DNA of 64,000 bases from a virus, in IMG/VR virus record IMGVR_UViG_3300020193_000005, positions 1-64,000 of that record. One strand, written 5' to 3'. How positions within the stretch are numbered: position 1 is the first letter of the stretch; each line of letters opens with the position of its first letter. The notes under the pieces are model-generated. The model made no database searches. It saw nothing but the letters and a program-made list of their open reading frames with translations, and was not told the origin of the DNA. The translations under genes and the position numbers were made by a program. Below are positions 27,804-64,000 of this stretch, in pieces.

Positions 27804-30800
27804 ATGAAAAACACGCAAATCACAGAAGACTCTTCGTACTTGTACAAGTCCCTAAACGGACAGATCAACATAGACGAAGCCAAGGGCGTGGTGGAGGCGT
27901 TCGTCGCCGGAATCGGTAACAAGGATTCTGTAAACGACATATGTTTACCCGGTTGCTTCACCAATTCCCTCGCCAGACGAAAACCCAGAGTCGTGTGGGG
28001 TCACGACTGGAATTCCCCCATCGGCAAAGTTTTGGAGATATACGAAGTAGGACCGAACGATCCGCGACTGCCGGCGAGAATGAGAAAAGCCGGCGTCGGC
28101 GGTTTGTACGTCAAGGTTCAATTCAACCTGAAGGCGGAGAAGGGTAGGGAGGCTTTCGCCAACGTTTCGTTTTTCGACATGGAGCAGGAATGGTCGATCG
28201 GGTACAAGACCCTCGACGCGGTATTCGATCCGGTGCAAAACGCGAATCTCCTCAAGGAGGTGGAGCTGTACGAAGTCTCTCCCGTGTTGCACGGCGCCAA
28301 TCAACTCACCGGAACCATATCCATCAAAGCCGACGGGACCGAAACGCAGATCAAGGACGGGCAGGGTCCTTGCTGGCCCGGATACAAACAGGTCGGCACG
28401 AAGAAGGGCAAGGGCGGGAAGATGGTTCCCAACTGCGTGCCAGTCGACGGCAAATCGCTCGAGGACGAGTGTTGCCCTGACGAAAAAGCGGCCGATAAAC
28501 CGGTCCTACGCGATCCCAAGGGTGGATTGACGGCCGCCGGGAGGGCCCATTTCAAGAGAACCGAGGGCGCGAATCTGAAACCGGGCGTGAAGGGCGCGGC
28601 CGACACGCCGGAGAAAATGCGCAGGAAGGGTTCCTTCCTCACGCGCTTCTTCACCAATCCCAGCGGTCCGATGAAGAAACCGAACGGCAAGCCCACCAGG
28701 CTCGCCCTCTCCGCCGCCGCCTGGGGGGAGCCGGTACCCCAGGACGCGTCCGATGCCGCGAAATTGGCGGCAAAGGGTAGAAGATTGCTGGAGAGATACG
28801 AAAAGACCAAGAAGAAAAAGAAAGACGATTCCGATTCGACGCAAAACAAAAATCACGTAGAGGCGATTTATTCCGCCTACAATTCGCAAAGCAACGAAAG
28901 CTTCGGCAGAGCCTCCATGTTGACCAGGTCCCTGGCGAAACATTTCGGCGGAGCGGTAAGACTCGTGAAAGCCGACAATGACATAGCGATTTTCGAAATG
29001 GGTGCCGGTACCGGGACGGAAATGCTGAGAGTCGCCTACCACTACGACGGCGACGAGTTCATGTTCGGGACTGCGCAAAAAGTAAAGCCCGAAACCGTGT
29101 TCATCCCGATCGGTAGCGAGGGCGCTCCTACGGGCGGGATCGTCACCTCGCCGTCCGCCACGACTCCGCAGACCCCGATGCTCGCCGCGGGCGTTCCCTC
29201 GGCATCGTGTTGCGATTCGTGCGCCGCCGGGAAGAACGTTTGCGCAAGTCCGAAATCTTTGGCGACTTGGGAAGAATTCACGGAAAAAAACGACGGTAAT
29301 CATTCGTTGTTCGTTCTCGAAAGAGGGGACGACCCGACGGAGATTTTTGACGCGTTGTCCGCCGTAGGCGAATATCACGGATTTTCTGTCAAGACCCTCA
29401 ACGACGGATTCCTCATCGAGGACTACGACTCCCTTTCGGACGAAGCCGTGGAGGCGGTGGGGACGCTGGGTCGCGCGATGGAGCAAAAAGCTTTACGCAG
29501 ACTGAGGGGGCGAGGCTCACGAGGGAACATGGATCCGCGAACGGCCATAGACGCCGATCTGGACAGACTCGTGCTCGAGGGAATACCGATGATCAACCTC
29601 GGTCGCGGCGTACCGGATCCCACGCCTTTCGGGAATGTTCCCGATGTGGGAGGGGGTCGTGCCGAGAGGCTTGCGCGAACTCTTTCTCCGAGGGTGCGAC
29701 GTAACCAGCAGAGGACGATGGGACAACTTGAAGGTGCAATAGAGCCTTCGCTCATGGATAGGGCCACGGAGAGGGTCGCTAGGGGAATGGACGCCGCCGA
29801 GACCAGAATCAGCGATCAAATGGGTCGTTTCGTTGGCGATTTAAGGGAGGAGCGAGACGCGAGAAAGGCGAGAAGGTTCGAAAAGGCGAAGAAGAGGGCT
29901 CAAAAGAGGGGTTGGTTGCCCACCGAAGAACAACTCGCCCGAAAGAGGTCGGCGGAAGAAGCGCTTTTCGACTTGGATGATCAGGAGGACATGCTTCTCG
30001 CGATGGAGCAAACGAGACGATCCCGGATGGGTCTTCCGGCGATGTCGCGAGAAGAGTCGGCAAGAATGCTCGACAGGAACATTCCCGATCGCCACGAAAA
30101 ACGCAAGAAACTTTACGACGAGCTTTACGGCGACAGCGGAGCGATGCGAAGCGAAATGCCGGCCGTACCCTACCCGCAACGACAACCAGAGAAAGTTCCC
30201 GAGCGCGTCCCCGAGAAAGTTCCAGAGAAAGTTCCCGAGAAAGTTCCCGAGAAAGTTCCCGAGAAAGTTCCCGAGAAAGTTCCCGAGAAAGTTCCCGAGA
30301 AAGTTCCCGTAAAACCGACGCGCGTCCCCGAGAAAGTTCCCACGAAGCCGCAACGCGTCCCCGAGAAAGTTCCCACGAAGCCGCAACGCGTCCCCGCCAA
30401 GCCGCAACGCGTCCCCGAGAAGGTTCCAGTGAAACCAGCGCGGGTCCCCAGGAAGGTTCCAGCACGCACCTCCGCCGACTCCGGGGCGATGTCGAAGGAG
30501 CCCGAGAAAGGCGATCAAATTAGATTTTACGGAAGCTCGGATCCTTACACGAAACTACAGCCCGGAACGATGGGCAGGGTGACGAGAGTCGCTCCGGACG
30601 GAACGATTTCGGTGGAGTGGGAAGACGGAAGTTCTTTGAAGATGATTCCCGGCGAGGACGTCTTCCAAATCATGCCGCCGGCTAAAACCTACGCAGACTT
30701 GAATCAACTCATAGAAAGCCCTTGGCGCTTTGACGAAAACATAAGTCTTCACCTGGATCCGAAAACCGGAGTTATTTATGAAGCCGACGCCTACGGTCAA

Positions 30801-33800
30801 TTGGTCGAACGACTCGGAGACGGGGCGAAGCTGACCCAATTGAACGAGTTCAACATCGATGATACCGACTCCGTCGGCTACGACGACGCAGGCAATCTGG
30901 TCAATCGCGGACCGGACGGGGACGAAATAATCTTCACGGCGGAGCAGCTCGGCGATTCGGGTGCGATGACTCGTCCGTTGCCGGGAATGTCCGAAGAAGA
31001 ATACGAGGCATGGCTCGCGGAACATCGCGCAAAGAGCAAGTGGAAGGGGCGGAGGGGCACCGGGATCTTCGTGGACCCCGACACGGGCAAGCCGGCGAGT
31101 CCGAAAGACAAAGAAGTCCTCGACAAAGTGATGGAACAAATGCTGGCTGCCATAGAAAGCGACGATCCCGACTCAATTCACTCCATGGAAGATCTTACGA
31201 ACGCTACAAGGAATCCGGACGGAAGCTGGTCCTTTGACTCTCCCGAGGCCGTCATAGAAATAATAGAGGGAGAGGCGGCCGGGGATACGCCAGAAGAAAT
31301 TCTGGACAGAATTCGCCGCGCCAACGGCGAAGTGGACGACGAAGCGGAAGGCGATTCGGGTGAAATGACCGTGAATCGCGGGGTTCCGGACGACGTGCGT
31401 AGGGTCGTACAGGGAACGGACAGAAGCAATTTGGTCGGCGGGCGTGCCGAGCCGATGAGGAGAGCCAACGAAGCCCTCGTTTCCGCGGCCAACCGCACGA
31501 TTCGTCCGGAATCGAGCGGAGACACCACGGATCCCGCATCTCGGGCGGCCAGCGACATCATTAAAACTTTTGATCAGTTCAAGCTTTCTCAGGCGGAAGT
31601 GGACGATCACATCGAGAGAATCAAGGCGTCCATGGGTCGGATGGTCGGCGAGGTCGGTAATTCCGAGTCGAGAGAAAAAATCATCGACACCTTCAATAGG
31701 GTGCTCGGAAAACTCACTCCGGAACAGATCGCCTTCGAGCGATCGAGGATAAGGGAGAGAATAAAGAACGCCGGGTTCGACGAAATGCGCCGTATGTTCG
31801 GATTGGACGACGAATCCAATTCCGGAGCCATGGCGAAAAGAGCCGCCAAAACCCCGGAAAAACTGGAACGATTCGAAAGGGAAGATCTCGGAAGGCGCAT
31901 ATGGCTGGAGCGAACCTACGACGGCAAGACGCTCGACGACGTAGCCAGAAAACACAGAATGAGTCGGGAAGCCGCGCGTCAACTGGAGATTATGCACGCC
32001 AGAAAACTGAACGGAATGGATCCCTCATCGGACAACAGGGTAGGTAGATCGACCATAGAAAGAGTCGTGTCGAGATCCGCAATCGGGCTCTCTGATCAGG
32101 AAGCCGACCTCCTACGCAGAAGATTCGACGGAGAACTCCTTGAAGAGTCGGCCAGGAGAATGAGGATGGACAAAAACGCCGTTCGGAGAATGGAACAGCT
32201 CGCTCTCAGAAAGATGCGGGATTTCATCGTGGCGGCGGAAAAATTCGAAAACGAAGCGGATTCCGGCGCGATGCGTCGCGGATCTGGAGGCACGGCGGCA
32301 GACGCCGACCGCCCAAAAGGTCGTAGGTTTCCGGGGCGTAGAGCCCGGAAGACACCAGGTTTCACGATTCCCGAAATGGTGGAGTCGCTAAGCGACAGTT
32401 ACGGCAGCGACATGTCCAGATCCGACATCATCGCCGCCGCCGTACTGATGCGCATAAGAAGATCGATGACCGACAAAATAGACTATCTACTGGCGAAGGG
32501 AGCGAGAAGTAGGAGATTCTCCGCCCTGGCCGACGAAATAACCAAAGCCGACGCCGTCTACAAAGACGGCTCGACCACCGGATCCGCTTTCGTCAAGACC
32601 GTTTTCGGCTCCAGCGCTGAATTGAAAAAACTGATCCAGAGAAGAGCGAACAGAATCGACGAGGTAAAAGACGTTGACGGAATAGTGAACGCAAGAACCG
32701 CCGTAACCCTCGAGGAGGTCGGCGGCGACGTGAGGGAAGCCGCGCAAAAATTGGGCATTGATCCCAAGGTCGTGGAGAGACGGGCTATCGCTCACTCGAT
32801 CATCGCCCAAGCGATAGCGACTCCGGAAACGCTGAAAATAGCGTCGCAGATAGATTCGCAATTCGCTTACGGGATCCTGTCGCCGAAACAAAAAACGCTT
32901 ATCAAATTATGGTTGGCCGGTTTCAGCCCCGAGGAAATAGCCGAGACGCTAAACATGACGAGAGCCGACGCATGGAGGGATCTCGGAAGAGCGGTAAGAC
33001 GAATGTCCATGGGCAACCCCGAATGGGTGAGCGAAAAAAACAGAAGAACCATCGCTTCCGTTGATTTGGCCAGCGACGAAGCCGGAGTTTTCTCGGAGTT
33101 GACGCTTTCCGACGGATCGAAACACAGGAACTACCTATCAAAGAGCCCCATCGGTAGCGGAGCAAGCGGAGCAATGGCCAGGGCCGAGGTGGTGAGCGTC
33201 GCCACGGACGCCGGCGAGGAAAGTTACGTGATGGTTCCGGCGAGAGGGGACAGGAATCCTTCATCCTTCTCGCTCTTCCCGTTGAGAACCAGGAACGAGG
33301 ATTTGATTTACGAAGCCGTCGCGGCGGAGGCGAGCGGGATGCTCAATTCCGGTTTGTTCGCGAGAATAGTCACGGACGAATCCGGTGATCAGAAATTGTT
33401 CGCCGGATCCCTCGGAAAGAATTCGATAAAAACGCTATCGGAGATCGGAACCGTCAACGAGAGAACTCCGTTCGTGACGTCTCTCGCTTCGGACGAAAGG
33501 TACGGAAAAGCCCTTCTAGCGAAGTACGACGATCTAAGGAACGTCCTATCCGATACTCCGTTCTCGGAGAATCTGGGCGTGGACGACCGTCGTCTTTCCA
33601 GACTGTCGGAAATCTCGGAAAAAATAAGGAACTCGGCCGCCGTAACGCCGGAAGAAATAGTCGTCATGGATTCCATATTGTCCGAAATCGACGACTCGAG
33701 GCGATCGGCCATACGTCGCCTACCCCACGATTTCGACGAGGAGACGACCGATTCCTTCGTCAACGCCGCCGACGATAGGAGATTTTCGTACGCAGAAAAC

Positions 33801-36800
33801 GACGGCGGAAAAACTGTTCCGTACGCCAAAAGAATGCTCGGGTTGGGTTCGCCGAACGCGAGAGAATTTTACCTACGCGTCGGCAAAGACGGAAAACTTT
33901 ACAAGTGGAATCATCCGAACAATCTCGAAAACGACATAGGATCCTGGGCGGATTCCGCGGTCGGGGAGGAATTCATTCCGTCGAGAGACGACGTCAGGGC
34001 GATTGCTTACGACTCGACCGGCGTTACGAGATCCCTCGTTGGCGACGGAGATTCCGGGGCGATGAGTCTTCCCGGAGAGGGAACCGAGTACCGAGAGGAC
34101 GACAACGAAGTCGTCATAATTTCTGACGGTATTTCGGAAGCATCCATCGGCGGGGCGGCGTATTTGGCCATCGGTCAGAATAAACCCCTGTCTTTTGCGT
34201 ACTACAAGAAGGGATCGGGATGGGAAAAAAGATCGGTCGTTCCGAGGGATCTGGTCAGAGGGGTGTACAAAGCCGTGAAACGCGACGACGGATCAACCGT
34301 CTTCGTTTTCCATAAAGCCGACGCCCCGAAAGGATATTTGTTCCTTAGGGCTTTCGATCCGAATAGGAACGAGGCGAGAGAATTCAGGCTGGACAGAATC
34401 GGCGGAATCGGCAACCTGACGTCTCAACCCAAATCCACGAACGCCGCGCCGTCCGGAACTCCGCAGGGCAATACCCCGACGGGTTCGACGCCGCCGAAAC
34501 AAGTTTTCCCGAAACAAATTTTCACTCGTGCCGGCAAAGTCGGACAAGCGACCGTGTGGGTTGATCAACATCCGGTCAGACCGAGCGCCAGACAATCCGC
34601 GTACGAAAAGACGATCGTGGTCGCCGATGCCCCGGTGGCCGGCTATCTCGACGAAGCCTTGAAAGAAATCGGGGAAGGGAGTTTCTTGGAGGGTTATCAG
34701 GGCGACGCTTCGGTGGTGCTTTCGGTCCTGATGGACGCGCTCGGCGACGAAAAACATCCGTTGCACGACAGAGCCAACAAATACATGCTCGCCATGGAAT
34801 CGAAAAAATTAGGCAAACTCCTCGGTAGGACGGCATACAGAAAATCCGGCCTGCAAGGTCCTCCGCTCAGAAGAAGGGCCAAACCGTGGGGTGGCGACCG
34901 GGGAAATACCAAGTTGGCGGATTTCGAGTCGTGGACCGATCCGCAGCAGATGTACGACTGGGCGCGAACCGGGGACTATGTCCTTTTCGACGTGGAAACG
35001 ACCGGATCCCCGGGACTCGATGCATCCGCCGCCGAGATAGCGAGAAAAACCCCGCAGGGAAGGGTCGTTCAAATTGCCATGACCCCCGTAAAGAACGGAG
35101 TCCCGGGACAAACGAAAATTTGGTGGGTCAAACCATTGGACGACGACGGCAACGCAGTGGAGATGAGCGACTGGACGAAGGAAAACGTGCCCGGTCCCGA
35201 CGGTGCAAGAACGCTAACCGACCAGTTGGCGATGAACGATCCGAGATTCGTGGATCCCGCGGTCGCGTGGAGGGAGGTGTCCGATTGGCTCAAATCGGAA
35301 TTCGGGGATTCTCCGATTCTGGTCGGATACAATTCGGCCAACTTCGACATGCCGATCGCCGAAAGAATGATCGACGACCGAGATCTCAAAATTGGTTGGT
35401 TCGACGTCATGGTCCTCGCGGATCAGGTTCTGTACGCGGAAAGCCAGGCCTTCGACGACCTTAGCAAGATTTCCGTAGATAGAAGGAAATCCGGTCGGGT
35501 CGTACCCGGTTTCGCGGCGGGAACCGTGATTAGCATGGCCGGGTTTTCTAAGCGTCATAAAGCGAACCGAGGTTCCAGACTGATATTCGGACCCGCCAAC
35601 TTTCATCCGGTACTCGACGGCAGCGGGAAGCCCACGTTCAAGCCGGACGGCAAACCGAAGATGCAACCTAAGTTCAGGATAAACCTCGAGAGTCTCAAAG
35701 AGTGGGCCGGGGTGAAAACACGAAGAGCCGCCCACGCCGCCGACGTCGACAACGACGTCACGCACAGGGTGATGCTAGCCCTGACCGAACATCAAACGAA
35801 ACGCGGCAGGGCTCTTCACATGTTCGACAAAGACTTGCGAAATCAATTGGAAAGATACCTACGGGAAGAGTACGAATTCAGGGCGAGTACGCACGAAGCG
35901 AGGAAAAACCAGGGTTCTTTCTTCGGATTCAATTCGCCCAGAGCCGATAGCGGCGGCGCGAGACCGAATGAACCGGCCGACGTCGGGGACGCTACGACCG
36001 GTTACGCCGAATCGTACGGAAATGTCGTCGGCTCTCGGGAGACCGGGAGAAGAGTTGTGGGTAGACCGTCCGTAAGGGTAATCGGCGATTATCCGGGATT
36101 GCCGTTTTACGTCGTCTCCTCGAACGGGGAGGAAACAATCTTGATAGGACCGGAATTCTGGACGGACGGAATAGACCCGGACACGAGAGAACCGTTACTG
36201 CTTAGAAACCAGAAAGCTCTGATCCCGATGATCGGACAAGCCAGAAAATCCGGACGCGGTATTCAATTCGTCTACGGGAGGCGCGACGACGGATCACCGG
36301 TCAACTACGAAATATTCGCCCTCGAACTGGTGCCCGACGACGGCATGACGATGGAGGAGGCGAGAATAGCAACCGAACGAGATCGAAGAATCAGATTTAG
36401 TCTTGCCGGAACCCTAAGAAACGGAATGTCGTTTGAATTTTCTTTCAAGGACATAGGCAATCCCGACGCTCCACCGCCCAGAGCGAGCGAATACGTTCCA
36501 ATGACGGGCGAGGAAGTTTCGGGAGTCACGGACGCGATTCTCATGACTCCGGCCCAATACTCCGATCAGTTGATGAGAAAACGCGTCATTGCGTTGCGTA
36601 ATAGTCGTAGCGGGGGCTCCGGGTCGTCGACGTCGGGGACCGATTCCGGCGCGATGTCCGGTTTGACGAATCGCTACGGCGGTTCGGGGGGATTGGAAGC
36701 GTGGATACCCGACGAGAAATATAAGTCCTTCTCCTCCATGGACGAATCTCAGCTAAGAGCGATAGTCGAACGAACCAGGAGATCCGTGAACGATTTGATT

Positions 36801-39041: not shown

Positions 39042-39116
39042 GTCTTACCGAACGAACCGCTATTTTTTGATAAGTTTCCTACAAATGAGCTAAGACGTCT
39101 TAGAATAGGAGTTGCG

Positions 39117-39691: not shown

Positions 39692-39692
39692 A

Positions 39693-41717: not shown

Positions 41718-41728
41718 GAGTAGCCGCC

Positions 41729-54500: not shown

Positions 54501-56170
54501 CCCGAATGGCTCAGAATAGAAAAAATGAGATTTTGAATCCTCAAATACTGGAAAGAAACAAACAAGACATCATCCAGGGACAAAATTTGCCGGATCACGT
54601 TGACAAATTCGTCGATCGTGCGGTCGGCGAGGGGAAAACCGATTTAGAAATACTCCAAGATCCTATTTTGAAAAGCGCAAATTCCAAGGATAGCTACGGC
54701 AAGCGTTTGGGGTTGGCTAGGCGAATAGCTATCGCCCGCGGCGACGAGAAACTCGTCGAACAAATAGACGAGTTCGTGGACGAGTTGCAGCGTTTCACGC
54801 CCGAACAGTACAACTCGGCGCTAGAGGAGGCCGTCGAAAAATTCAATAGCCCGTTCGACGAGCGACCGGTAGTCCTCGTACAAAGCCCGCTGGAAATAGT
54901 TTCCTCCGGCAGATATCGGACCGTTCACGACGGGATGTCTTCGCAGAACAACGAGAACCCCATGACCCGCGGAACGAACGTCCCGGAATTACGGAGGACA
55001 GCCGAGTCGATGACTTTGAACATTCCCTTCGAGGACGACGAACAAATCAGGTCGCTCAGACCCGCGTCGGCGATGGTGGCGCAAAGAACATCCAGCGAGG
55101 CCAGAAACGCGAAACTGCGCGAAATTTACGGCGACGACGTGGAGATCATGCACGACGGCCCCTCGATCGGGAAAGAAGCAAACTTGGAAATCACGGAGGG
55201 AACCAGCGCAGAACAAAAAGGGCAAGGGCGGCAGTACGGATTCAGCTCCATCATTCTCCGCCCCGAAACGGCGAACAGAACGCTCGCCGTCGACGGGGAC
55301 GTGATAAGCGATCAGGGCGAATCTGGCGGCAGAATCTCCGCCGCTGGCGCAAGACTGACGAATCTTTCCCGAAAAGGCGAAATCGCCTCGCTGTTCTTCG
55401 ATCCGCTGGCGCTACTGTTCGAGGAGAGAACCGGAAGAAGGGACACCGTCGCCAGCGTAAGAAACAGTCAAAACAAAAGATACGTAGAGGGTATGGTTCT
55501 TGGGTCTTTCGAGGTTTCCGACATCGAATCGGTGGTGGCTAATCCGTTATACCTTCGCGGATCCGGCAAAATTTGGGATTTCGATAAGAAAAAAACGAAC
55601 TTGGTCGGAGTTACTCCGCAGGCTAGTTTCACGAACCTAATCGCCGCCGCCAGACAGCGCGAAGACCTGGTTGACCGGTACGGAATAGACGTGGTGATCG
55701 ATTCGCCGTATCTGCCGTTGGACGAGGTCGAACCGTTCAACGCCCAAATGACCGAAACCTGGGTGGGCAGAAAAATCGCAAACGGGGATTGGACAGGGGT
55801 CACGAAGTCGGATCTCATAAAAAACAGACGAACCACCCCGTACGAAGCGTTGTTGAGATATCGAAAAGTGTTGGCGGAACGAGAGGGAACAATGGGGCTT
55901 CCGATTTTTGATCACCCCGACAACGACTTCAGGGACGAACCAGGACAAGTCAAAAATTTCGTCTCCATGATTGACGAAGAGTTGGCGAGAATCGGCGGGT
56001 TTGGCGGGGTTTCGGATTCGGGAGCGATGCGAAGCGCACGGGTAAAGATGCTCATTCAAAGAATAAAAATGGGACAAATGAGCGTAGGTGAAGCGGCCGA
56101 GCAACTGGGCGTATCGCCGTCGACCATTTACGCGTTGATGAGGAAGCCCGCCGAAGCGGTCGGGAGGTGA
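48587..56170 (+). CDS. Giant polyvalent protein (2527 aa): zincin-like HExxH, Pro/Gly linker, DEDDh exonuclease, DUF3626-like, HTH
   Basis: TATAAT and GAGG upstream; 4 DSGAM-type linkers; HEPKH; LDTET...NGNNFD...HDAKVD. Confidence 0.85.
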   Translation: MSPIFENIPPNSKVIAKHGSKVLFGLRNGSTALYDSKSGSFRRGDDADLMAMDDFSSSHNGEWADDRLRRFAASRKTLNLGSDISFKVVQKPRKSSSRDDVAQPQDLANMLPREFVNWARSYVPGQRLPISPPGYSGTDSCLGQNAGGRSSAKMPNADELTSMILRTYGFPQTAPVDATKEMRSAYEKGLLGRTIREMATPNILSMVAAARGLWVDRLNKIRCLGGPAANRFTNIFGVGCDIPSSPAELARDAASAAREAAGDASRAVGEAMERVGEARAGVGIAKERVGETIEATDEIPGDLSVTRMIGELRQSEQTLFDTDTGQMTRRAGGNQPLLINSANAVADETNKKATRRVLIHEGARRWINSWVERQKGEDPSNPLGVIRSAIRRRRSRQQATTTGALTPQQLNEQEVKLYAQGVIELIRLTDPELADELSEPSHLLNDINDPVAVRNAGNQNSKNVIEMMLTDALGPDAGRDRAKLQRYAANLFAIYQPYIEDRQNHPELKQTPVNFAPQKNLWETSNVVAFFTVPGFGGGRNQPLSNYVAPTPTNPGYAGSGMLDLLDRGEFPLFGMGYPGNNVVEAVTRSGVTPLDGYKHTTDSFYNKVVKNIGSGNAPFHGVYLFDSRLITEPESLMRLFDSPDGHLPVSGLSPAAVLQHTLEHEPKHLVAFSQRLRSNLGYTEAEWAERLGRQFKLGGSGLEDSRFGDPILGENPDHVYGPIDLFRDARSGTFIRRQVDELMIALRHPDYEGVVLPDGLRGWKSTDPVLNGAQKIALLWKFYANNISWDRTTAQNVQNLYALKAGKQAAAQLVAEIDESLKRRGFDDGVRRILQQAIREDLMYYEDGPLDRRRILGSSSEDALHQSINEAAIDAEIAQRISAGTPNPDRDQVINDLIAQGRVIPLGSRPDPGRPVTGPLSQHNRLSGQNRLTEKQIVLAQNFVGDAYAMSSAIELDAEFNTAIAQPDAPERVKQFIAAYRAVDPNFTDNDFYDIIELMAGREARYRLQHPNRPSPPRASAAPNRNLIGAPPAQARQASPPQAPPALGGGLGPGGTPPPPGGGGGGGGGGGGGVTPSPGGGTPSPGTPSPGTPSPGGGTPSPGTPSPGGGTPSPGTPAKKPRKKRTPKPKPGAQTPPASPTPGGQTPPASPTPGGQTPPASPTPGATPATPNQSPLPQGGSPVPRPRPTTQRPPQAKRTGPKPSSKADTTTVQKAGALSADIVQTIAVGDPNDSQWLQKSLDSLDSDDQAASDHRARAVQKVDRALDDVVAWANGRLLPKPVGIHPHYPIQIVAGPDDNPAVRELRQSTGPKDLLDRMDRLGYIVLDTETAGPDLEIHGGAIFHFYAKKRNPDGTVEELDLYIKPTVTPAMPVDRYPDAFETLPDGTRIARLSEELTSGPQKMLDRAEYDRAVSQGIDRTEAAARIAAFLNPDMPVVTMNGNNFDLPLLDEMLDEGRAAGTVDNDFGLIDLASVDLLAIGHNLLRGRHERHDRNRKVADLARRLYNGDKIPSGPELIGPWMTSKIGSPKGSVEGYNPATADIKEFWSEDGVKHFVETLPDGTKIKGEAMTMLKTNNKLDALANYAGVRARATHDAKVDVGKTEETMRALLEQGEIQGMSKYAFDHEAAAKAQEALGMGPPQGGTLDRKRPGDVRKAKGTAQRLAGGPGTRSSRTDTDLDLEQDERVDAFAPWPDAASRTGMSANPNLQVIEPQDGMTSAEKNEMTTLLEKLEGLDQIKQVRKATNLTPEERQRLKILLTKAADAYKKAKTRISDSQGDLTDDEGIRAWLAQLAKMEKFMKENPDLYSEEAIQLMVDGVINGAGNLTPESLVAMERRVNDLITKLGYQGEFFQDMVAAHLSVALDRAVREMRRRNPSLSANEIRELLGMDPDDTPLVVAILGDSGAMRSARRIAGTRRIDDIAPDSGAMRSTPVVARNPDSSRKTAEKTASILGRAESVGVDIDRQEREVVPRMAQNRKNEILNPQILERNKQDIIQGQNLPDHVDKFVDRAVGEGKTDLEILQDPILKSANSKDSYGKRLGLARRIAIARGDEKLVEQIDEFVDELQRFTPEQYNSALEEAVEKFNSPFDERPVVLVQSPLEIVSSGRYRTVHDGMSSQNNENPMTRGTNVPELRRTAESMTLNIPFEDDEQIRSLRPASAMVAQRTSSEARNAKLREIYGDDVEIMHDGPSIGKEANLEITEGTSAEQKGQGRQYGFSSIILRPETANRTLAVDGDVISDQGESGGRISAAGARLTNLSRKGEIASLFFDPLALLFEERTGRRDTVASVRNSQNKRYVEGMVLGSFEVSDIESVVANPLYLRGSGKIWDFDKKKTNLVGVTPQASFTNLIAAARQREDLVDRYGIDVVIDSPYLPLDEVEPFNAQMTETWVGRKIANGDWTGVTKSDLIKNRRTTPYEALLRYRKVLAEREGTMGLPIFDHPDNDFRDEPGQVKNFVSMIDEELARIGGFGGVSDSGAMRSARVKMLIQRIKMGQMSVGEAAEQLGVSPSTIYALMRKPAEAVGR
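51770..52085 (+). repeat. (GGT)~13 poly-Gly, TPSPG repeats and 33-bp (QTPPASPTPG[GA]) x3
   Basis: Directly visible low-complexity coding repeats. Confidence 0.95.
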
Positions 56171-56174
56171 CGAA

Positions 56175-59045
56175 ATGATTGAATCCGCCACGCAAAGATT
56201 CATTTCGGCGATGGGCGAAATCGACGCGACCAGAATGGAATCCAAGAAAAAGTCTCTCGGTCGGGACATGAATCCGTACACCGCCAGGGACGCCGATTTG
56301 GACAGATTGGTCCTCGAGGGAATAGCACGCGTAAACATGGGTAGGGGCATCCCCGATCCGACGCCGTTCGGAAACGTCGGAGCGATGACGCGGAATCAAC
56401 CCCCCCCGGCGAGACCCGAGAACAGATTGCGCAGGGCGGTCAGGCGTTCCATGCGCGACACCCCGAAGAGGGTCGCGAGGGGAACCAGCTCATTGCGACG
56501 ATACCTCGAGTCGAGCGACGGCGTCTCGGGGAGGATGGCCTCGGAAAGACCGATCGATCAAATTTTCCAGAATTTCAAAAGGGTGTCCATCGACGAGATA
56601 CGAAGCGGCGTAAATTCAGTCGTCGGGAAAGTCGATTCAGTCATGGGGCAACGACCGAGAACGATCGGCGAAATATTGAGAAATCTGAAAAGTTTGGAAA
56701 ATCTCATCAACGGAATGAATCCGGACGGATCGCCGACCCCGAACGGAGAGAATAGGAATTTTCGTTTGCTTCCCCTTTTTTTCATGGCGTCCACACAGAA
56801 TGCTCTTAGGGAAGCGATGGGAGATAGATTCGACGGAGAAAAAACGATTCCGTCGAAGCACGACATCGGCGTGTACTACGCGACGGCGTACTCGATGCTG
56901 GAGAATCCGGAGGCTTTTCGGGACGTCGATTTCATAATTCAGCCGATGTCCATGCCCGACATCTTCGGTCATCCGGGCGCAGAAGGATCAGTTTCGATGG
57001 TTCCGTCGTATTACTCCTTCCACGCGCGGCCGCCGAAAAGCAGCGTTAGGCGTGAAAGGGGCGGCGGGTTCGATACCTCCGGAGTAGCCGACACCTACGT
57101 GGCGTTCTCGCCGGTCAAGGACTATAGCGAAGGTCTAATGATAAACGTGACCCATAATCCAAGGATCGTCGGCGGTCGACTGCCGGTGCTCATGAGATTG
57201 GCGATGTACGGAGAAGAAGGGGACAAAGAAACGGTCGTCAAGGGTTTCATTGTGCCGAAGTCGCAAACCGGAAAACGATCCGTTACCGAGAAGTTTCAGG
57301 AGACGGAATTCGTGCACGAACGGCGGACCGGCGAAAGGGCGACGTTTCAGAGACTTTTGAAGGAAGCCAACGATTTCATGGATGCCTATTCGGAAGAAAT
57401 TTCTCCGTCGTTCGTTGTGGAGACGACGGGACTTGACATAGTGCTTTCGCTGATCGAAGAGGCTCAACGAATTTTCAAAAAAGCGAACGACGCGTTGGCC
57501 GAAGATCCATCCGTTTCGCCGTCAATGGTGGAAGCCATGCGCGACGAGGGCAAGCGGCTTATTGATCTGGCCGACATGACGGCCTCCATGGCTTTGGCTT
57601 TTCACGAATTCGGTCACTTTTTTGACAAAGTTGGCGACTACAAAAATAGTCCCGCCTACCCGGAGGCGTCCGATACGGGGGGTAGGGGTTTGAATACCGC
57701 GTACGAGTACAGAAGGGATCTGGCGATACTCGAATCGCTGAAAAAGGGAGAACCTTCGCCGTATCTTGAATCCGTCGCCGAAGAGCTTATGCACGGCAAA
57801 GTGAAGAACATTTTGAAAAACTTTTTGACCACGTACGTCGATATGACGGCCGCCCTAACGGCAATGGAGAGATTGTCGCTGGTCAGATCCTCCCTGAATC
57901 CGTTGATCGGCGACGTGGCGAAATTGGTAAACGACAACGACGGTTTAGCCGGCTGGGCCTGGGTGAAAATGGTAGTGACCGGACAAACCAAAACGGTCGA
58001 AGACGCGGTTTCTACGATCAAAATGGCGGGGCTCGTCAAAGTAAACCCGGATAATTCGCCCTCCAGGGTCGAAGCGGAGGCAAGGCGAATCATAGGGGAA
58101 TTGCGAAAAATATTCAGCTACGGGGCGGCCCGTGGCGTCGCTTGGGATATGCGCTCGCGCGCGTCGCGCCTGTTGACCCCCTCGGCTTTTGCCGCGCAAG
58201 CTATGGATAACGAAAATTTTAATTCCCTTTTGGCCAAGGCGGACGATCGGCAAAGAGCGATGATGCTCGCAGTGATGGCGGACGCCCTGGTTCGCGGCTA
58301 CGACAACCAACTAAAAACATCCATAGAAGCCACGAAAGAGCGAATCATCGAAAACGAAAGGTTGTTCAAGGGTGAAGGAGAGGTGCCCGATAAATACATG
58401 GGACTAAGAAGAAACGCGTGGCTTTCGGAGTGGCTGTCCGGGCAGTCGTTCAACGTCGACGGGTATGCGACGGGCTGGAGTAGTCTCATGTCCGAATTGA
58501 TTTCATCCAATCCCGACGTCGTCGTTGAGTTTCTGGAACTATTCGGCAGAAAGAACGCGATAGACGGTTGGTTTGACGCCGACGGCTCCTTCAGTAAAAA
58601 AGAATTCGTCAAAAGGGAAATAACAAGAAAACACGTAGACCAACCCAGTTCGTATAGTCCGATTCTTCACGCCATAAATAACGCCGTAAACGGCAGGGGT
58701 TATTCCGGATGGAAGGATCTGACCGACGACGAATCGGCGACTTTGGCCGCCGTGATCGGGAAAATAACTCAGTATGCGGATCAAACGGATTACGACATGG
58801 CGAATCCGAGACCCAAGCACGTTCAGGTCTCAAACGCCGAAACTTACGCGGAACTCAACGCCATCCTAAGCCTGAATATTCTTTCCTTCCTGAATGGGTT
58901 GACGCAAAGAGAGAGGGACATCGCCCTAAAATTGCGTTCGCAGATGATGTCAAGAGTAAACGAAATGCGAGGACGAATGTTGCGTAATTCCAGGCGATTG
59001 CGAACCCCCGAGGAACAAATGCGAACCCCCAAGGAGCAAAGATGA
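56175..59045 (+). CDS. Large tagged protein (956 aa) with zincin-like HExxH metallopeptidase motif
   Basis: GGAGGTGA SD; tag at N-terminus; AFHEFGH and downstream YA...AETYAE. Confidence 0.8.
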   Translation: MIESATQRFISAMGEIDATRMESKKKSLGRDMNPYTARDADLDRLVLEGIARVNMGRGIPDPTPFGNVGAMTRNQPPPARPENRLRRAVRRSMRDTPKRVARGTSSLRRYLESSDGVSGRMASERPIDQIFQNFKRVSIDEIRSGVNSVVGKVDSVMGQRPRTIGEILRNLKSLENLINGMNPDGSPTPNGENRNFRLLPLFFMASTQNALREAMGDRFDGEKTIPSKHDIGVYYATAYSMLENPEAFRDVDFIIQPMSMPDIFGHPGAEGSVSMVPSYYSFHARPPKSSVRRERGGGFDTSGVADTYVAFSPVKDYSEGLMINVTHNPRIVGGRLPVLMRLAMYGEEGDKETVVKGFIVPKSQTGKRSVTEKFQETEFVHERRTGERATFQRLLKEANDFMDAYSEEISPSFVVETTGLDIVLSLIEEAQRIFKKANDALAEDPSVSPSMVEAMRDEGKRLIDLADMTASMALAFHEFGHFFDKVGDYKNSPAYPEASDTGGRGLNTAYEYRRDLAILESLKKGEPSPYLESVAEELMHGKVKNILKNFLTTYVDMTAALTAMERLSLVRSSLNPLIGDVAKLVNDNDGLAGWAWVKMVVTGQTKTVEDAVSTIKMAGLVKVNPDNSPSRVEAEARRIIGELRKIFSYGAARGVAWDMRSRASRLLTPSAFAAQAMDNENFNSLLAKADDRQRAMMLAVMADALVRGYDNQLKTSIEATKERIIENERLFKGEGEVPDKYMGLRRNAWLSEWLSGQSFNVDGYATGWSSLMSELISSNPDVVVEFLELFGRKNAIDGWFDADGSFSKKEFVKREITRKHVDQPSSYSPILHAINNAVNGRGYSGWKDLTDDESATLAAVIGKITQYADQTDYDMANPRPKHVQVSNAETYAELNAILSLNILSFLNGLTQRERDIALKLRSQMMSRVNEMRGRMLRNSRRLRTPEEQMRTPKEQR
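56268..56372 (+). repeat. 35-aa shared tag, copy 3
   Basis: MNPYTARDADLDRLVLEGIARVNMGRGIPDPTPFG. Confidence 0.95.
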
Positions 59046-59344
59046 CCGAAACGAACGAAATGCCCCCGAAAGAAGAGATTGATCCGCTCAAGCAGAGGGA
59101 GATGGACGTCGCCGACGACATGTTCGGTTTTGGCAGAAAGAGCGCTAAAAAGGTTTTCCTTTCACTATTGACGGACAAAATGATGGAAAATGGAGTAAAG
59201 CCGGAATTAGCGAAGGACGTGGTGCTCTCGTTGTTGCCGGATTTGACCGAAATCGAAAAAGCCATCAGCGAAAATATAAGCTTTGCCGATCTGGCGAAAA
59301 GATACGAAAATTTCATGGATGGGGAATTGAGGGAAAATGAATGA
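59042..59344 (+). CDS. Hypothetical acidic protein (100 aa)
   Basis: AAGGAG SD and ATGA overlap. Confidence 0.7.
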   Translation: MTETNEMPPKEEIDPLKQREMDVADDMFGFGRKSAKKVFLSLLTDKMMENGVKPELAKDVVLSLLPDLTEIEKAISENISFADLAKRYENFMDGELRENE

Positions 59345-59906
59345 GTTCTTGAACTCAAAAGCCGATCCGCTCGGAGGTCTTTTGCCCCAGGAGGTCGTAA
59401 CCGGCGACGTCATGCGCGGATACGGTCCCAGAAGGGGAAATCTGGAGAGATTGCTTCGCTACTGGAGACCGATCATGAAGAAGCCCGGCGGATTCAGGAG
59501 GTGCAGGGTCATTCTCGCCGATCATCCCGAGCTGTATCCGCTCAACAACATATGCGCCTGGTTGCATCACGAAACGACCGGATTATGGCCGAACGAAGGC
59601 TGTCACCACCCGGGCATGAAAAACTGCAGAAGAAAACTGCGCGGCGTCGTCAACGGATCGATCTGGAGCGACTCGGATTTCAACGACAGGCTCAAGAAAA
59701 TTACGAGGAGAAGGGGAAAGAAGGATCTCAGATCCAGTGGCGGTATCGACGCGGCCCAGACCTACGATCCGTTCGTGCCGGTCATAACGGACGACGACTG
59801 GAATCACGCCTGGGTGGTTTTGGACGACTTCGTAAAGATGGAACCGACCTTCGTCGCGTACGTTTGCTCGGACGATAACTGGGAGATGTTCGATTCGGAT
59901 GTCTGA
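59337..59906 (+). CDS. Hypothetical head-module protein (189 aa)
   Basis: GNLERLLRYW..PGGFRRC...CAWLH..TTGLWP resembles a Cys/His module recalled from actinophage head genes. Confidence 0.65.
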   Translation: MNEFLNSKADPLGGLLPQEVVTGDVMRGYGPRRGNLERLLRYWRPIMKKPGGFRRCRVILADHPELYPLNNICAWLHHETTGLWPNEGCHHPGMKNCRRKLRGVVNGSIWSDSDFNDRLKKITRRRGKKDLRSSGGIDAAQTYDPFVPVITDDDWNHAWVVLDDFVKMEPTFVAYVCSDDNWEMFDSDV

Positions 59907-61992
59907 CGCTATGGGCAACGACGACTGTTGCGGGAGTAGAACTCTCGTCAAGAGGACAATTTCGCCGGCGCTCGCCGTCATGCGAACAAACGTATACGAC
60001 GTGCCGCTGTATTTTTTTCGCAATAGACAGAAAACCGTGGACTACAAGTGTCTGATGACGAAATCCATATCCGAGAGAAGGACGACGAGTCATCAAATCA
60101 GCGTCAAGTCGGGGATAATTTCGTCGGACGACCCGGTCTCCAGGGCGGTTCAAACCGTGGGCGGAATTTTGATTCCGGGGAATATGTCCAGGATCAGGAG
60201 GCCTTTCAGATCCACCATCGGTTCGGCCGTGGTTACGGGACCACGGGGTCTGATTCCGTCCACGGTTTCCAGACTTTCGCCGGGAATGATCCCGAAACCG
60301 GACAGGGGATTTAGGTGTCCGGAGGGTTTTCAATTCGGGGGACAATTCACGGACAAGTACTACTCGACGTGCGGGAAAAAACTCTTTCAGCTAGCCCTGA
60401 CCGTGGGAGCGAATTTCGACAGATACGTAAAGCTGTCCTCCGCGGGCGCCCTGAGAAAATTCAGGATAAACGGATTCGAATTGTCTCCCATCTCCAGGGA
60501 GAGACAAATATCGGCATCGGATCAAATCTCGACCATTCGGAATCCCCAAATTGATATACCCGAAGTCGGCTCGTATAGCGTGTCCAAATTCAGGGAAGCA
60601 TTGCAATCCGTCGTGAAGGATATGACGGACAGGGGAGAGTCCTTGTCCCGCCTGGTGAGAAGGGACGGGTTGGTCCTGGAACCGCTCGTATCCGCCAAAG
60701 TCCTGAGGACGGTTCCGGACAACAAAAGCATGGAGGAATCCGCCTACGTGACGTTCGCTAAAAATCCCGCATACATAGGCGGAGACGAAATGTGGATGTT
60801 CTCCAACAGCGGAGTGAATTCGCTCGTTTACGTACTCCCCAACGGCGGAACCCTGACACTAAGAAAGAAAAGGAATCTATCGAACGGGGAACGAAGGAAG
60901 CTCGGGAGAACGATATCCGACGCCAGGAAAATGACCCTGTCCGACAATCCAGCGATCAGGTTGGAACACGTTTCCTCGGAAATGGACGGACCGATAGCGT
61001 ACGAACAAAATTTTAGCGACATAGATTTTCCCAACGATATGGTGATCGTGTTCGACGCGAAGACCAAAAAACAACGCCAGGTTCGCAAATGGCACAGGGA
61101 CGCATATCTTCTGGATCCGAAAAAGAGAGTGATCTCCGAAAGGTCTACGCAGATAGAGGACGTCGCCGGGATGCAGGACGATCTCGGCGAGGCCGTTTCC
61201 ATGCTGAACGACGGAGGGCAAATCGGAAACATAAGTCCGGAAATACGGATACCGGCTATGGAAAGATCCGGGGTTTTTAGAGCCAGGCGCGCCGGCGACC
61301 GCGCCACGGAGTATTACAACGGTCGGCAAAAACTCGTCGCCATGAGTTCCAGGGTCGAATTCGAGCACATCGGAGCAATGACGACCGCAGAAATACAGTC
61401 GCAATTGGGGGCGGTCGCTCCGTACGTTTGGTTCGCCGGATCGGGGATAAGAAGACCCTACATATATTCGATGCCCGACGGCGACAAGAACGCAACCAGA
61501 ACCTCGAGGGTAAGCGACGAAAGTTTCGCAAACGCGGAAGATATGACTCGACTGATGATCGCCGACATCCTCACCGATTCTCTGTCGAGAAATCCTTCGC
61601 TGATATACACCTCGCAGTTCGACGGAAAAAACAGGACCTATTCGGCGCCTCTTTCGCTGTCGGCGATGTCGGGAATGAACAGGAAGGAAAAAGAGAAGAG
61701 AATATCCGAGACTTCCGCGGAGGTAATGCGCGATCTTCGGGTCTCCATATATTCGGATTACTTCCGTTCGTTGAGGGCAGCTCAAAGAAAAAGATCCCTG
61801 TCGTTGCTGGAGGAACTCCTAGAGAGAGCTAAAATGTTCTCGTTCGCCGATTTTGCGAGAAGAATGGCCATAGACGGAAAAATGTCGGAAGCCGAACGCA
61901 TTCATCTCGAATCGGTGAAAAGACTCTACGAAAATAGGGTTCAACATCTGTACTCGGGCATAAAGACGATCAGGGAGATAATCGGTGAATAA
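59899..61992 (+). CDS. Hypothetical protein (697 aa) with RC..GGQFTD..C motif and possible degenerate HipA/PI3K-like kinase fold
   Basis: Long ORF overlapping both neighbours by 8 nt. Confidence 0.7.
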   Translation: MSDAMGNDDCCGSRTLVKRTISPALAVMRTNVYDVPLYFFRNRQKTVDYKCLMTKSISERRTTSHQISVKSGIISSDDPVSRAVQTVGGILIPGNMSRIRRPFRSTIGSAVVTGPRGLIPSTVSRLSPGMIPKPDRGFRCPEGFQFGGQFTDKYYSTCGKKLFQLALTVGANFDRYVKLSSAGALRKFRINGFELSPISRERQISASDQISTIRNPQIDIPEVGSYSVSKFREALQSVVKDMTDRGESLSRLVRRDGLVLEPLVSAKVLRTVPDNKSMEESAYVTFAKNPAYIGGDEMWMFSNSGVNSLVYVLPNGGTLTLRKKRNLSNGERRKLGRTISDARKMTLSDNPAIRLEHVSSEMDGPIAYEQNFSDIDFPNDMVIVFDAKTKKQRQVRKWHRDAYLLDPKKRVISERSTQIEDVAGMQDDLGEAVSMLNDGGQIGNISPEIRIPAMERSGVFRARRAGDRATEYYNGRQKLVAMSSRVEFEHIGAMTTAEIQSQLGAVAPYVWFAGSGIRRPYIYSMPDGDKNATRTSRVSDESFANAEDMTRLMIADILTDSLSRNPSLIYTSQFDGKNRTYSAPLSLSAMSGMNRKEKEKRISETSAEVMRDLRVSIYSDYFRSLRAAQRKRSLSLLEELLERAKMFSFADFARRMAIDGKMSEAERIHLESVKRLYENRVQHLYSGIKTIREIIGE

Positions 61993-64000
61993 CGATCTCG
62001 TTTTCGCCCCGATTCGCGACGTCTATACGGATCTGATATTTTCCGTGCTGCTGAGCGACGGAATAAAGTGCAAGGCGATAGGAAACATGAACCAGGGCGA
62101 CGACTGGGCGCGTTGGGCGAACGGGTCGGGCCTGAGTAGTTCGCTAATACTGGATTCGCTCGACTACACGTTACGAGCCGACGAGTTCTCTCCCCTAACG
62201 GAGTCGTCCCTGATCTCCGTCAAGTCGATCCTCACGGCGGACGCATACGACGCGCTTTCCGTTTCGCTGGATGGCATTTCCATCAAGTCTCAACCCGACG
62301 ACGACGAATCGCAAGCCGACGAGGATCTCCCGGAGCCCGAACAGGAGCCCGTTTCCGCCATATCGGTGATCGAGGTGGGGATGTCGTTGTTCGACGCCCA
62401 ATTCAAGAAATTGGCGGTCGACTACAAGGCGAATTATCAGAATACGAAGATAGACGTGTCCTCCTTGGCGCTGAGCGTAAAAGCCACCAAGTCCGTGTGG
62501 GCAAATAAAGCGGACGGCGTCGCTTGGAAATCATTGGTCAGCAACTCCTACTCCGACGATCCTGGCAAATTGATTTACGGAAAGATGTACGGGCGCGGTC
62601 TATCGCGGCGTTTCGCCATGTCCGTAAAAGCGGTTTCCAACATGGATCCGCGAACGGCGAGGGACGCCGATTCGGACAGATTGGTCCTCGAGGGCATTCC
62701 CACAGTGAACTTGGGTAGGGGGGTTCCCGATCCGACCCCGTTCGGTGCAGCGAGGCTCGCCAGAAGAACCAGAAAAAACCGAGATTACGCCGTAGCCGAC
62801 GGTAAAAACAGAAAGCGAAGAATGGAGTCCCGTTTCTCCGCCGAAATCAGGACGGGCGGATTGGATTCAACAGCCGTCGGAGGGCGCGATTACTTAAAAG
62901 ACGACGAATCCGATTCCGGAAAAACGACGTTGAACAGAAGAATGAATCGCAGAACCGCGGGAAGCTCGACGAGCGCGACCGCGAGAGGAACGAGCGCTTC
63001 GTTCGATTCGGGCAATCCGGCCCAGTCGGCGACGCGCTCAACTAGAGGAAGGTTTCCGAAGACTTCCAGGATCATTCAAAAAATAAGGAACAATCCTCCG
63101 GTGAGGAGATTGTCGGAAAACGTTTTCGGGGATCGCAAGATTTCGGGAAAGAAGCCGAGACTCGACAAAAGGACGATGGCCAATCGATCGACCGGGTGGC
63201 TGAATAAACTTTCCGAGAGAATAGCCTCCGCCAGTCCCCCGAAAATGGACACCGGTTCGCCGATAAGGGAAAATAGAAGAAGAAAATCGCCCTTCGCCGG
63301 CGAGAGCGACACCGGTCGGATGAGGCGCGTCGTCTACAGCCAGACGACACCGATGAGGAGTTTGTTCGGATTGAGAAACTCAATGGACGACGATTCCGCC
63401 AACAGAAAGAATCTCTCCGAATATACGCCGACCGAAAGGGCGCTGATACTCGGAGAGGCGAAAAAGGTCAGAAGCGACCTTCTCTCGCAATGGAGATCGC
63501 GTTTGGGTCTATCCGAAGACGCCGACGTACTCGAAGACGGAATTTTGACCTATATCCAGGATCAGGAAGCACGTGGAAAAAACGTCTATCCGCTCCAGGT
63601 TCAGGCACATAATTTGCTGATCCTCGACGAAATGCTCTGGGATGCGGAAACGAAACCCGACAAGAACATGGACAACATGTGGTGGAACCTCAAGGAAAAC
63701 GCTAGAGCCAGAATAGTTTCCGATTCTGGCGTTCTCGTTCCTAGCGCCCAAAAACAGGGGGACAACGATCTTTCCAGGCCACCGGCTCGTCCGGTAAAAA
63801 CCCCGATAACCGCTCCTCCTCCGAAGAGCGCCGACGAAATCGTCAAAACTCAGGTCGCGGCAAACGACAATCCCTGGAAGATGGATAAAAATACGAGAGA
63901 TCAGGTCATGTCGGATCTGGGCGAATGGTTGAAAAACTCTCCGGAATTCCTAACGTTTAGCGATAGGTTCGGCGAAAACGAAACCGAGTGGGACGAATTC
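61985..64000 (+). CDS. Large tagged protein, partial (>672 aa, runs off the window end)
   Basis: Manual translation from GTG 61985 (GGGAG upstream) is stop-free to 64000; contains tag copy 4 and DTGRM at 63308. Missing from the ORF track. Confidence 0.85.
   Translation, partial: MNNDLVFAPIRDVYTDLIFSVLLSDGIKCKAIGNMNQGDDWARWANGSGLSSSLILDSLDYTLRADEFSPLTESSLISVKSILTADAYDALSVSLDGISIKSQPDDDESQADEDLPEPEQEPVSAISVIEVGMSLFDAQFKKLAVDYKANYQNTKIDVSSLALSVKATKSVWANKADGVAWKSLVSNSYSDDPGKLIYGKMYGRGLSRRFAMSVKAVSNMDPRTARDADSDRLVLEGIPTVNLGRGVPDPTPFGAARLARRTRKNRDYAVADGKNRKRRMESRFSAEIRTGGLDSTAVGGRDYLKDDESDSGKTTLNRRMNRRTAGSSTSATARGTSASFDSGNPAQSATRSTRGRFPKTSRIIQKIRNNPPVRRLSENVFGDRKISGKKPRLDKRTMANRSTGWLNKLSERIASASPPKMDTGSPIRENRRRKSPFAGESDTGRMRRVVYSQTTPMRSLFGLRNSMDDDSANRKNLSEYTPTERALILGEAKKVRSDLLSQWRSRLGLSEDADVLEDGILTYIQDQEARGKNVYPLQVQAHNLLILDEMLWDAETKPDKNMDNMWWNLKENARARIVSDSGVLVPSAQKQGDNDLSRPPARPVKTPITAPPPKSADEIVKTQVAANDNPWKMDKNTRDQVMSDLGEWLKNSPEFLTFSDRFGENETEWDEF
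62642..62746 (+). repeat. 35-aa shared tag, copy 4
   Basis: MDPRTARDADSDRLVLEGIPTVNLGRGVPDPTPFG. Confidence 0.95.

Follow-up and report, generated by a model that had tools for sequence, protein, structure and literature searches.

Predicted giant proteins of an uncultured lake myovirus (IMG/VR record IMGVR_UViG_3300020193_000005, positions 1 to 64,000; this whole 64,000-nucleotide stretch is called the window below) contain the peptide DSGAM and its variants many times, in linkers between protein modules and at positions which are retained in related phages, each related genome spelling the peptide in its own way. From this pattern it may be suggested that (G)-D-S-G-A-M-[S/R/A/T] marks the sites where a phage-encoded protease cuts head-packaged polyvalent cargo into modules, and the probability of this is, in our estimate, about 0.65. 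New here are the genome-specific dialects of the junction peptide, which switch together at orthologous joints. The window comprises bases 1-64000 of a linear viral contig of 109,136 bp, estimated to be ~73% complete; features situated beyond it are given in contig coordinates.

Junction peptide in the giant proteins

The giant frames are real, since independent lake-metagenome contigs are colinear across them, and indels distinguishing a variant strain from the phage contig are in-frame or compensated. Their products contain helix-turn-helix (HTH) and sigma-like, DUF4314, exonuclease-like, NUDIX and zeta-toxin-like kinase domains together with many unknowns, and as strings of unrelated small modules they count as polyvalent proteins. 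The open reading frames (ORFs) in which junction sites were registered are as follows.

27789..39041, plus strand: giant ORF B, 3750 aa; S78 prohead protease, DUF6321, then 13 motif-delimited modules
B residues 32-177: S78 prohead protease domain with His72 and Ser136 (Pfam Peptidase_S78, 4e-11; phrog_80, 8e-26)
B residues 241-312 (window 28509-28724): DUF6321 (Pfam, 4e-28)
41729..48271, plus strand: giant ORF D, 2180 aa; several HTH modules, phrog_4776 module at 969-1179, conserved HEFFH at nt 46622
48587..56170, plus strand: giant ORF E, 2527 aa; exonuclease-like module (phrog_192), conserved HExxH at nt 50579, C-terminal HTH
56175..59045, plus strand: ORF F, 956 aa; shared 35-residue module (see below), 2 junction sites, HExGHxxD...GLNxxxE module (HEFGH at nt 57603), candidate zincin
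61985..64000, continuing to contig position 68107, plus strand: giant ORF I, 2040 aa
contig 69475-88875, beyond the window: ORF J, 6466 aa, the largest putative cargo chain; 6 DSGAM and 4 variant sites
6289..11619, minus strand: tape-measure-like protein, 1776 aa, with hydrophobic helices; downstream of the tail sheath gene

A preliminary description of the window had listed 15 exact copies of DSGAM and 12 variants, and all 27 were recovered in frame in plus-strand ORFs, at the positions tabulated here together with two sites of the minus strand. The number after the ORF letter is the residue; models of AlphaFold2 (AF2) and their predicted local distance difference test (pLDDT) values, as well as the relatives G003 and G004, are considered in the next sections.

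30132..30146, plus: DSGAM, B 782
30477..30491, plus: DSGAM, B 897; DUF4314 begins 5 aa on
30954..30968, plus: DSGAM, B 1056
31353..31367, plus: DSGEM, B 1189; ADAGM in the G004 alignment
31818..31832, plus: NSGAM, B 1344; xxAGM in six relatives; AF2 coil, pLDDT <50
32259..32273, plus: DSGAM, B 1491; SGAM, DAGM or SAGM in relatives; AF2 coil, pLDDT <50
33162..33176, plus: ASGAM, B 1792; SGGM, SAGM or LAGM in relatives; AF2 coil, pLDDT <50
34050..34064, plus: DSGAM, B 2088
36642..36656, plus: DSGAM, B 2952; FAGM, MAGM, SAGM, SGSM across all four relatives
37341..37355, plus: DSGAM, B 3185; PSGSM in G003
37650..37664, plus: DSGAM, B 3288
38331..38345, plus: DSGKM, B 3515; HTH begins 11 aa on
38862..38876, plus: DSGAM, B 3692; DAGM, EAGM, PSGSM in relatives
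41921..41935, plus: DSGLM, D 65
41999..42013, plus: DSGAM, D 91
43040..43054, plus: DSGRM, D 438
44075..44089, plus: ETGRM, D 783; GEAGM in G004
44597..44611, plus: DSGAM, D 957; phrog_4776 module begins 8 aa on
45335..45349, plus: DSGAM, D 1203; closes phrog_4776 module, opens HTH module
47168..47182, plus: NTGKM, D 1814
49553..49567, plus: DTGQM, weak variant, E 323
54293..54307, plus: DSGAM, E 1903
54359..54373, plus: DSGAM, E 1925
56015..56029, plus: DSGAM, E 2477; HTH begins 17 aa on
56373..56387, plus: NVGAM, F 67
56523..56537, plus: VSGRM, F 117; all F-family relatives have a small-small-M site near residues 100-130
63308..63322, plus: DTGRM, weak variant, I 442
11323..11337, minus: NSGAM, tape-measure residue 95; SGAM, LAAM or MAAM there in relatives
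11293..11307, minus: NSGAM, tape-measure residue 105

The exact peptide is thus present in 15 copies in the window, and six further copies beyond it, all belonging to the 6466-aa ORF J, bring the total for the 109-kb contig to 21. Six-frame translation of the window gave 6 and 9 copies in two coding plus-strand frames and 0 in the other four, while a degenerate DNA pattern for DSGAM found 21 matches on the plus strand of the contig, 0 on the reverse strand and 0 with a reversed-pattern control. In the 20,071-aa block of giant ORFs DSGAM is the commonest 5-mer; its composition-based expectation there is 0.023, and the corresponding ~900-fold enrichment agrees with the early estimate that far less than one copy should arise by chance. 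The residue following DSGA is methionine in 21 of 21 cases, GTG or TTG never taking the place of ATG, and the extended consensus reads G-D-S-G-A-M-[S/R/A/T]-[R/S/K]. Synonymous codon variation, already remarked on in the preliminary description, affects every position of the motif (AGC, TCC, TCG and TCT for Ser, all four codons for Gly, GCG, GCC, GCA and GCT for Ala), and it is therefore the peptide rather than a DNA element that is under selection. Degenerate codons likewise rule out a Shine-Dalgarno element, a recombination linker and gene conversion as DNA-level causes.

Fragments delimited by the sites of B are 786, 115, 159, 133, 155, 147, 301, 296, 864, 233, 103, 227, 177 and 54 residues long. 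The motif is not confined to head genes, as had been implied at first, because NSGAM occurs twice in the minus-strand tape-measure-like ORF; this pair (residues 95 and 105) is situated just before the hydrophobic helices. Several look-alikes were tried and rejected as junction sites. Conservation within a domain disqualified three of them, PSGPM at B 291 (a conserved part of DUF6321), QSGKMPH in J and VVGDMP in D. CGKCGAM in ORF C proved not to be conserved, and a GSM close to the N-terminus of H-family proteins from distant relatives has no conserved counterpart in this phage. The same DUF6321, which follows the protease domain, holds a conserved TNPSGPMKKPNG stretch resembling PSGSM, the dialect of G003, and G003 itself is devoid of DUF6321.

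Location of the sites relative to domains

Compared with random positions of the same proteins, the flanks of the sites (12 residues per side) have a higher propensity for disorder and are more hydrophilic, with z ~3.3 for TOP-IDP and the observed value reached in 4 of 5000 resamplings. No Pfam or PHROG match is cut by a site, for which the chance is, as a rough estimate, ~0.005, so that the absence of interrupted domains claimed initially was confirmed. A second claim, according to which recognizable domains begin shortly after a motif, holds for DUF4314, three HTH domains and phrog_4776, which start 5-17 residues on; it failed for SLOG, which is not found by Pfam, and the WYL match stayed just under the cut-off. 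The stretch between D sites 957 and 1203 accommodates the whole family phrog_4776 (profile positions 26-235 of 237), and near the C-terminus of J both the NUDIX domain (5887-6012) and the zeta-toxin-like kinase (6204-6384) lie between sites. Residues 1321-1860 of B were modelled with AF2 from an 8-row alignment (mean pLDDT 54). In this model 3 of 3 sites are in coil with pLDDT <50, and a helical domain with pLDDT of 84-88 is placed between B sites 1344 and 1491.

One entire inter-motif segment of the same protein, B 787-895 (window 30147-30470), is filled by a Pro-rich repeat of the (VPEK)n type, ~110 residues long, and might represent an extended spacer instead of a module. Contigs of the variant strain, obtained from two runs, have 51 other letters in place of the 207 nt that immediately follow the DSGRM ATG (window 43054-43262), which is a strain-level replacement of a module edge beginning exactly at the junction.

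Dialects of the junction peptide in related phages

A related protease region is encoded in 206 viral contigs, and four syntenic relatives (G001-G004) were compared with this phage (G000) as a whole. All four have the same series of giant ORFs, and each genome has its own junction peptide:

G000: DSGAM, n=21
G001: EAGM, n=29, mostly D-[A/G]-E-A-G-M
G002: [T/A/P]-E-A-G-M (EAGM n=18), also SAGM and DAGM
G003: P-S-G-S-M, n=15, also PTGSM and VSGSM
G004: [A]-[D/S/N/E]-A-G-M ([DSNE]AGM n=29)

Alignments demonstrated that the joints B 2952, B 3696, J 3818, J 5475, J 5647 and J 6133 are of the AGM type in G001, G002 and G004 and PSGSM in G003. Sites B 1344, 1491 and 1792 appear as AGM, GAM or GGM in six relatives, where the surrounding linkers are variable and indel-rich. 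Only small-small-Met followed by a small residue is constant across dialects, and orthologous joints switch dialect together, genome by genome, i.e. the motif is conserved in position and co-varies genome-wide. Dozens of sites having changed in concert in each genome, they must be read by a single trans-acting partner. Relatives have their own version of the peptide at corresponding joints, and its most likely role is therefore that of a cutting signal of a protease. A purpose connected with Ser modification is ruled out by the dialect D-A-E-A-G-M, which has no Ser before Met.

In the relative L010 the order of the modules B 966-1058 and B 1082-1275 (window 30900-31600) is reversed with breakpoints at junction sites, which points to module shuffling at joints.

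Shared 35-residue module

Apart from the junction peptide, B, D, F, I and J share a module of 35 residues with the consensus xDPxTAxDADLDRLVLEGIPxxNLGRGxPDPTPFG, five copies in the contig. It is 70-88% identical in relatives and located near the N-terminus, in the case of B after the protease region. Four copies fall within the window:

29529..29633, plus strand: copy in B
41813..41917, plus strand: copy in D, DSGLM directly after
56268..56372, plus strand: copy in F, NVGAM directly after
62642..62746, plus strand: copy in I

Combined with the immediate site in D and F, this module may serve as a removable capsid-targeting leader, which makes it a candidate packaging signal.

Proposed processing of the giant proteins

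Genes of the system are arranged in the order portal-MuF, protease fused to polyprotein B, other giant ORFs and, finally, the capsid gene. It is conceivable that the chains enter the prohead, B by virtue of its fusion to the protease, and B, D, F, I and J by means of the 35-residue module acting as a capsid-targeting signal. There the protease would cut flexible joints at small-small-Met, so that ~19,000 residues would be converted to some 40 module-sized products, which would then leave through the tail together with DNA. The figure of ~30 products proposed earlier is a guess. That the giant proteins are virion cargo at all we infer solely from gene position and the shared module. If the cut is made before Met, the products should start with Met-Ser, Met-Ala or Met-Thr, like a natural N-terminus. 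If it is made after Met, this residue would be P1 and a third of the products of this phage would probably acquire Arg at the N-terminus. N-terminal Arg is destabilizing in many bacteria.

Of the readings considered, cleavage by a phage-encoded protease explains the most facts, because it would account for the conservation of the peptide, for the position of sites in module-border linkers, for their copy number, for the leader followed by a site, for the dialects and for the protease fusion. Nevertheless, a number of observations weigh against it. Site-free stretches of 864-1657 aa occur in giant proteins, so that processing would miss single-domain resolution in places. The S78 domain is 85-90% identical among phages of different dialects, which is little divergence for a changed specificity, and we know of no strict site motif for the homologous gp4 of HK97. 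The tape-measure protein, although not internal to the prohead, is marked by the motif too. The major capsid protein has no DSGAM-type site, the only conserved candidate being GRNGANM ~50 residues upstream of the RVRDLF block; therefore the motif cannot be linked to what the S78 enzyme is known to do. In ORF C there is no conserved junction site either, and the motif thus does not mark the maturation site of the major capsid or scaffold protein. Thus, the idea of a processing signal at module borders put forward in the preliminary description gained from linker location, uncut domains, positional conservation and the genome-wide dialect switch, while the capsid without the motif and the tape measure with it were unforeseen by a simple picture of cutting inside the prohead. 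For T4 it was reported that the prohead protease gp21 acts on cytoplasmic targets (bioRxiv 10.64898/2026.03.04.709575), and a similar cytoplasmic action could, by analogy, account for the tape-measure sites.

Taken all together, the sequence data allow a broader scheme, whose chances we consider somewhat less than even. According to it, the lake clade would use a true polyprotein strategy, with more than half of the sequenced genome coding for head-delivered effector chains, ~40 joints of which would be cut by the phage protease; each lineage would have a private dialect co-evolving with this protease, the tape measure would be processed too, and the cut before Met would give native-like N-termini escaping the N-degron pathway of the host.

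Candidate enzyme and alternative explanations

As the reader of the motif we favour the S78 domain heading B, conserved HExxH modules remaining candidates. Catalytic residues His72 and Ser136 of this domain are conserved, and so is the fusion of the protease to polyprotein B in relatives; the stretch near the catalytic Ser reads FF[D/G][M/F][E/D]QEWS. Complex prediction with the S78 domain (37-row alignment) and a 41-residue linker alignment gave a score of 0.00, which says neither yes nor no.

Within the same assumption of cleavage there is a possibility, which seems rather unlikely to us, that the sites are cut not by S78 but by a cargo-borne zincin-like metallopeptidase, namely the HExGHxxD...GLNxxxE module of F or the HExxH modules of D or E. 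Zincins select mainly on P1', and with a reader of this type Met would be the P1' residue accommodated in a hydrophobic S1' pocket. The modules of F and E are conserved in 5 of 5 genomes, that of D in 4 of 5; the 11 sequences of the F family all have the residues H, E, G, H and D as well as a Glu located 30 residues downstream. A profile search detected only 9 representatives of this family among 1.84 billion proteins, which confines it to this clade (a homologue search with F 330-700 returned two proteins only), and its members are ~20% identical between genomes, i.e. they diverge as fast as the dialects. Processing of polyvalent proteins by zincins has also been predicted in general by Iyer et al. 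2017 (PMC5512222). At the same time, the D module is absent from G003, where the motif array is full, and HExxH by itself is a weak signature. The zincins which the preliminary description supposed to be encoded here are not found by Pfam; the HExxH modules have no Pfam, PHROG or PDB sequence match (the PDB search covered those of F and D). For the F module nothing usable came from the ESM Atlas, and its AF2 model (11-row alignment, mean pLDDT 50) is all-helical and too poor for a fold search.

Still less probable is the absence of any cut. The linker peptide would in that case serve as a short linear motif for docking, recognized by a partner in charge of all tail-travelling proteins (portal-MuF, the inner surface of the capsid or an ejection/unfolding factor). 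The dialects require no more than a trans-acting reader, and the tape measure, which bears the motif, also exits through the tail. However, docking does not need up to 13 copies per chain at module borders, the role of a targeting signal seems to be taken already by the separate conserved 35-residue module, and small-small-Met followed by Ser, Ala or Thr resembles, in our opinion, a protease site more than a binding motif.

We regard it as quite improbable that the sites are cut by a protease of the host, or not during head maturation but only once the proteins have been ejected into the host cell. This would fit the location of the tape-measure sites outside the prohead, and dialects could then track different hosts; yet closely related phages of similar lake samples would need hosts with proteases differing at P3-P6, the fusion of protease to polyprotein is conserved, and no host protease of small-small-Met specificity is known to us. 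Least of all can we believe that the ATG codons of the motif are internal translation starts or relics of gene fusion, with modules made separately: Met is invariant, the next residues are typical of second positions and some modules are free-standing proteins in other phages, but the absence of stop codons means that such starts would yield nested products rather than modules, the four residues preceding Met are kept at the amino acid level while their codons vary, ATG after DSGA is never replaced by GTG or TTG, and real gene starts are preceded by AGGAG at a distance of 7-8 nt, whereas a properly spaced core of the Shine-Dalgarno type stands before 13% of motif ATGs, 16% of other internal ATGs and 36% of ORF starts.

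Comparison with known systems

A cleavage code read by a phage capsid protease would have precedents. T4 gp21 cuts many head and ejection proteins at I/L-x-E (bioRxiv 10.64898/2026.03.04.709575), and gp245 of SPN3US cuts many such proteins at A-x-E (PMC10052503). Similarity to T4 gp21, phiKZ gp175 and SPN3US gp245 consists in the presence of an encoded phage capsid protease, in a short motif recurring in several predicted virion proteins, in the N-terminal leader followed by a site and in the nature of the substrates, which are proteins meant for ejection with DNA (PMC10052503; bioRxiv 10.64898/2026.03.04.709575) and are so predicted here from the genes. Those enzymes have Glu at P1 and remove mostly N-terminal propeptides from proteins of ordinary size, whereas here the putative signal is small-small-Met, up to 13 sites per chain are located at module borders, the chains are 2000-6500 aa long and the protease is fused to one of them. 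T4-type proteases belong to the T4 gp21 family, not to S78. Since the protease family differs and the capsid protein lacks the motif, the system is not a plain member of the T4/phiKZ type.

With HK97 it shares the S78 protease family of gp4 and a capsid protein matching gp5. HK97 gp4 is a protein of ~225 aa, free-standing beside gp5, from which it removes the delta domain; here, in contrast, 61 kb of putative cargo ORFs stand between the protease and capsid genes. Similar in organization are eukaryotic viral polyproteins, in which one frame yields many products, the same short motif, with small residues beside the scissile bond, is repeated at each joint and the protease is virus-encoded. Picornavirus 3C cuts Q-G, pp220 and pp62 of African swine fever virus are cut at G-G-X and poxvirus core proteins at A-G-X. 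Those proteases and viruses are unrelated, their products serve replication or form the core, and cleavage there has been demonstrated, while here it is deduced from a sequence pattern.

The arrays of unrelated effector and DNA-binding domains, the MuF head context and the NUDIX, zeta-toxin-like and HTH content are also features of the polyvalent proteins of Iyer, Burroughs, Anand, de Souza and Aravind (2017; PMC5512222). In this phage many unrelated conflict-type domains per polypeptide are combined with portal-MuF directly upstream, and as to the metallopeptidase (MPTase) of such proteins, there are conserved HExxH modules with no family or structure match and with a low-confidence model. 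An embedded peptidase was predicted to process polyvalent proteins, which have 2-15 domains per polypeptide, and in the passages searched neither the word 'linker' nor a junction motif is mentioned (PMC5512222). Distinctive for the lake phages in comparison are a defined junction peptide, its positional conservation, the dialects, ~19,000 aa in one operon and a capsid protease, rather than a recognized MPTase, as the best candidate enzyme. No description of a junction motif in phage polyvalent proteins was found in the literature.

Provided that the joints are indeed cut, the motif makes it possible to delimit single injected proteins, from sequence alone, in phage dark matter amounting to thousands of residues, and provides a ready test of the 2017 proposal that polyvalent proteins are processed. 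It would also mean that a polyprotein strategy in the style of RNA viruses operates on a very large scale in a tailed dsDNA phage, the dialects being a natural experiment in protease-substrate co-evolution and a possible source of orthogonal protease/site pairs as tools. As for the 35-residue module, it is a candidate for a tag with which foreign proteins could be loaded into capsids.

Genomic environment

The phage sequence is present in lake-water metagenomes of many studies; among the sequencing runs containing it none is listed as RNA. Other genes relevant to the system are the following.

minus strand: tail sheath gene and baseplate wedge gene
23906-25219, minus strand: large terminase
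25427..27715, plus strand: portal protein fused to a MuF-like head-morphogenesis domain (Pfam Phage_portal 4.7e-51, Phage_Mu_F 5.1e-09; phrog_2662 8e-104)
39693..41717, plus strand: ORF C, 674 aa, Cys-rich N-terminus and acidic tract; conserved in relatives, without junction motif
within window 59337-61992, together with ORF H: ORF G, 189 aa, conserved also in distant relatives
59899..61992, plus strand: ORF H, 697 aa, conserved also in distant relatives, without junction motif
contig 89204-90637: HK97-like major capsid protein, matches HK97 gp5 chains (E 1e-49)

Giant ORFs occupying ~61 kb and coding for ~19,000 residues of giant proteins separate the S78 protease from the major capsid gene. 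Gordonia phage Hanem has a protease which is 40% identical and, directly after it, the capsid gene; it was therefore the lake clade that put the ~61 kb of ORFs between the two genes.

The N-terminus of ORF C (window 39693-39830) has a Cys-rich, zinc-ribbon-like pattern CxxGxxxxECGYKxGxxxCGKCGA, which is kept in relatives and followed by long acidic tracts; a scaffold function might be considered. ORFs G and H, the latter with the motif GFRCPEGFQFGG, are retained even in distant relatives without motif arrays and are probably core head-module proteins. Just past the capsid gene, on the minus strand (contig 91791-97271), two DNA methyltransferases and a SNF2-like helicase are encoded.

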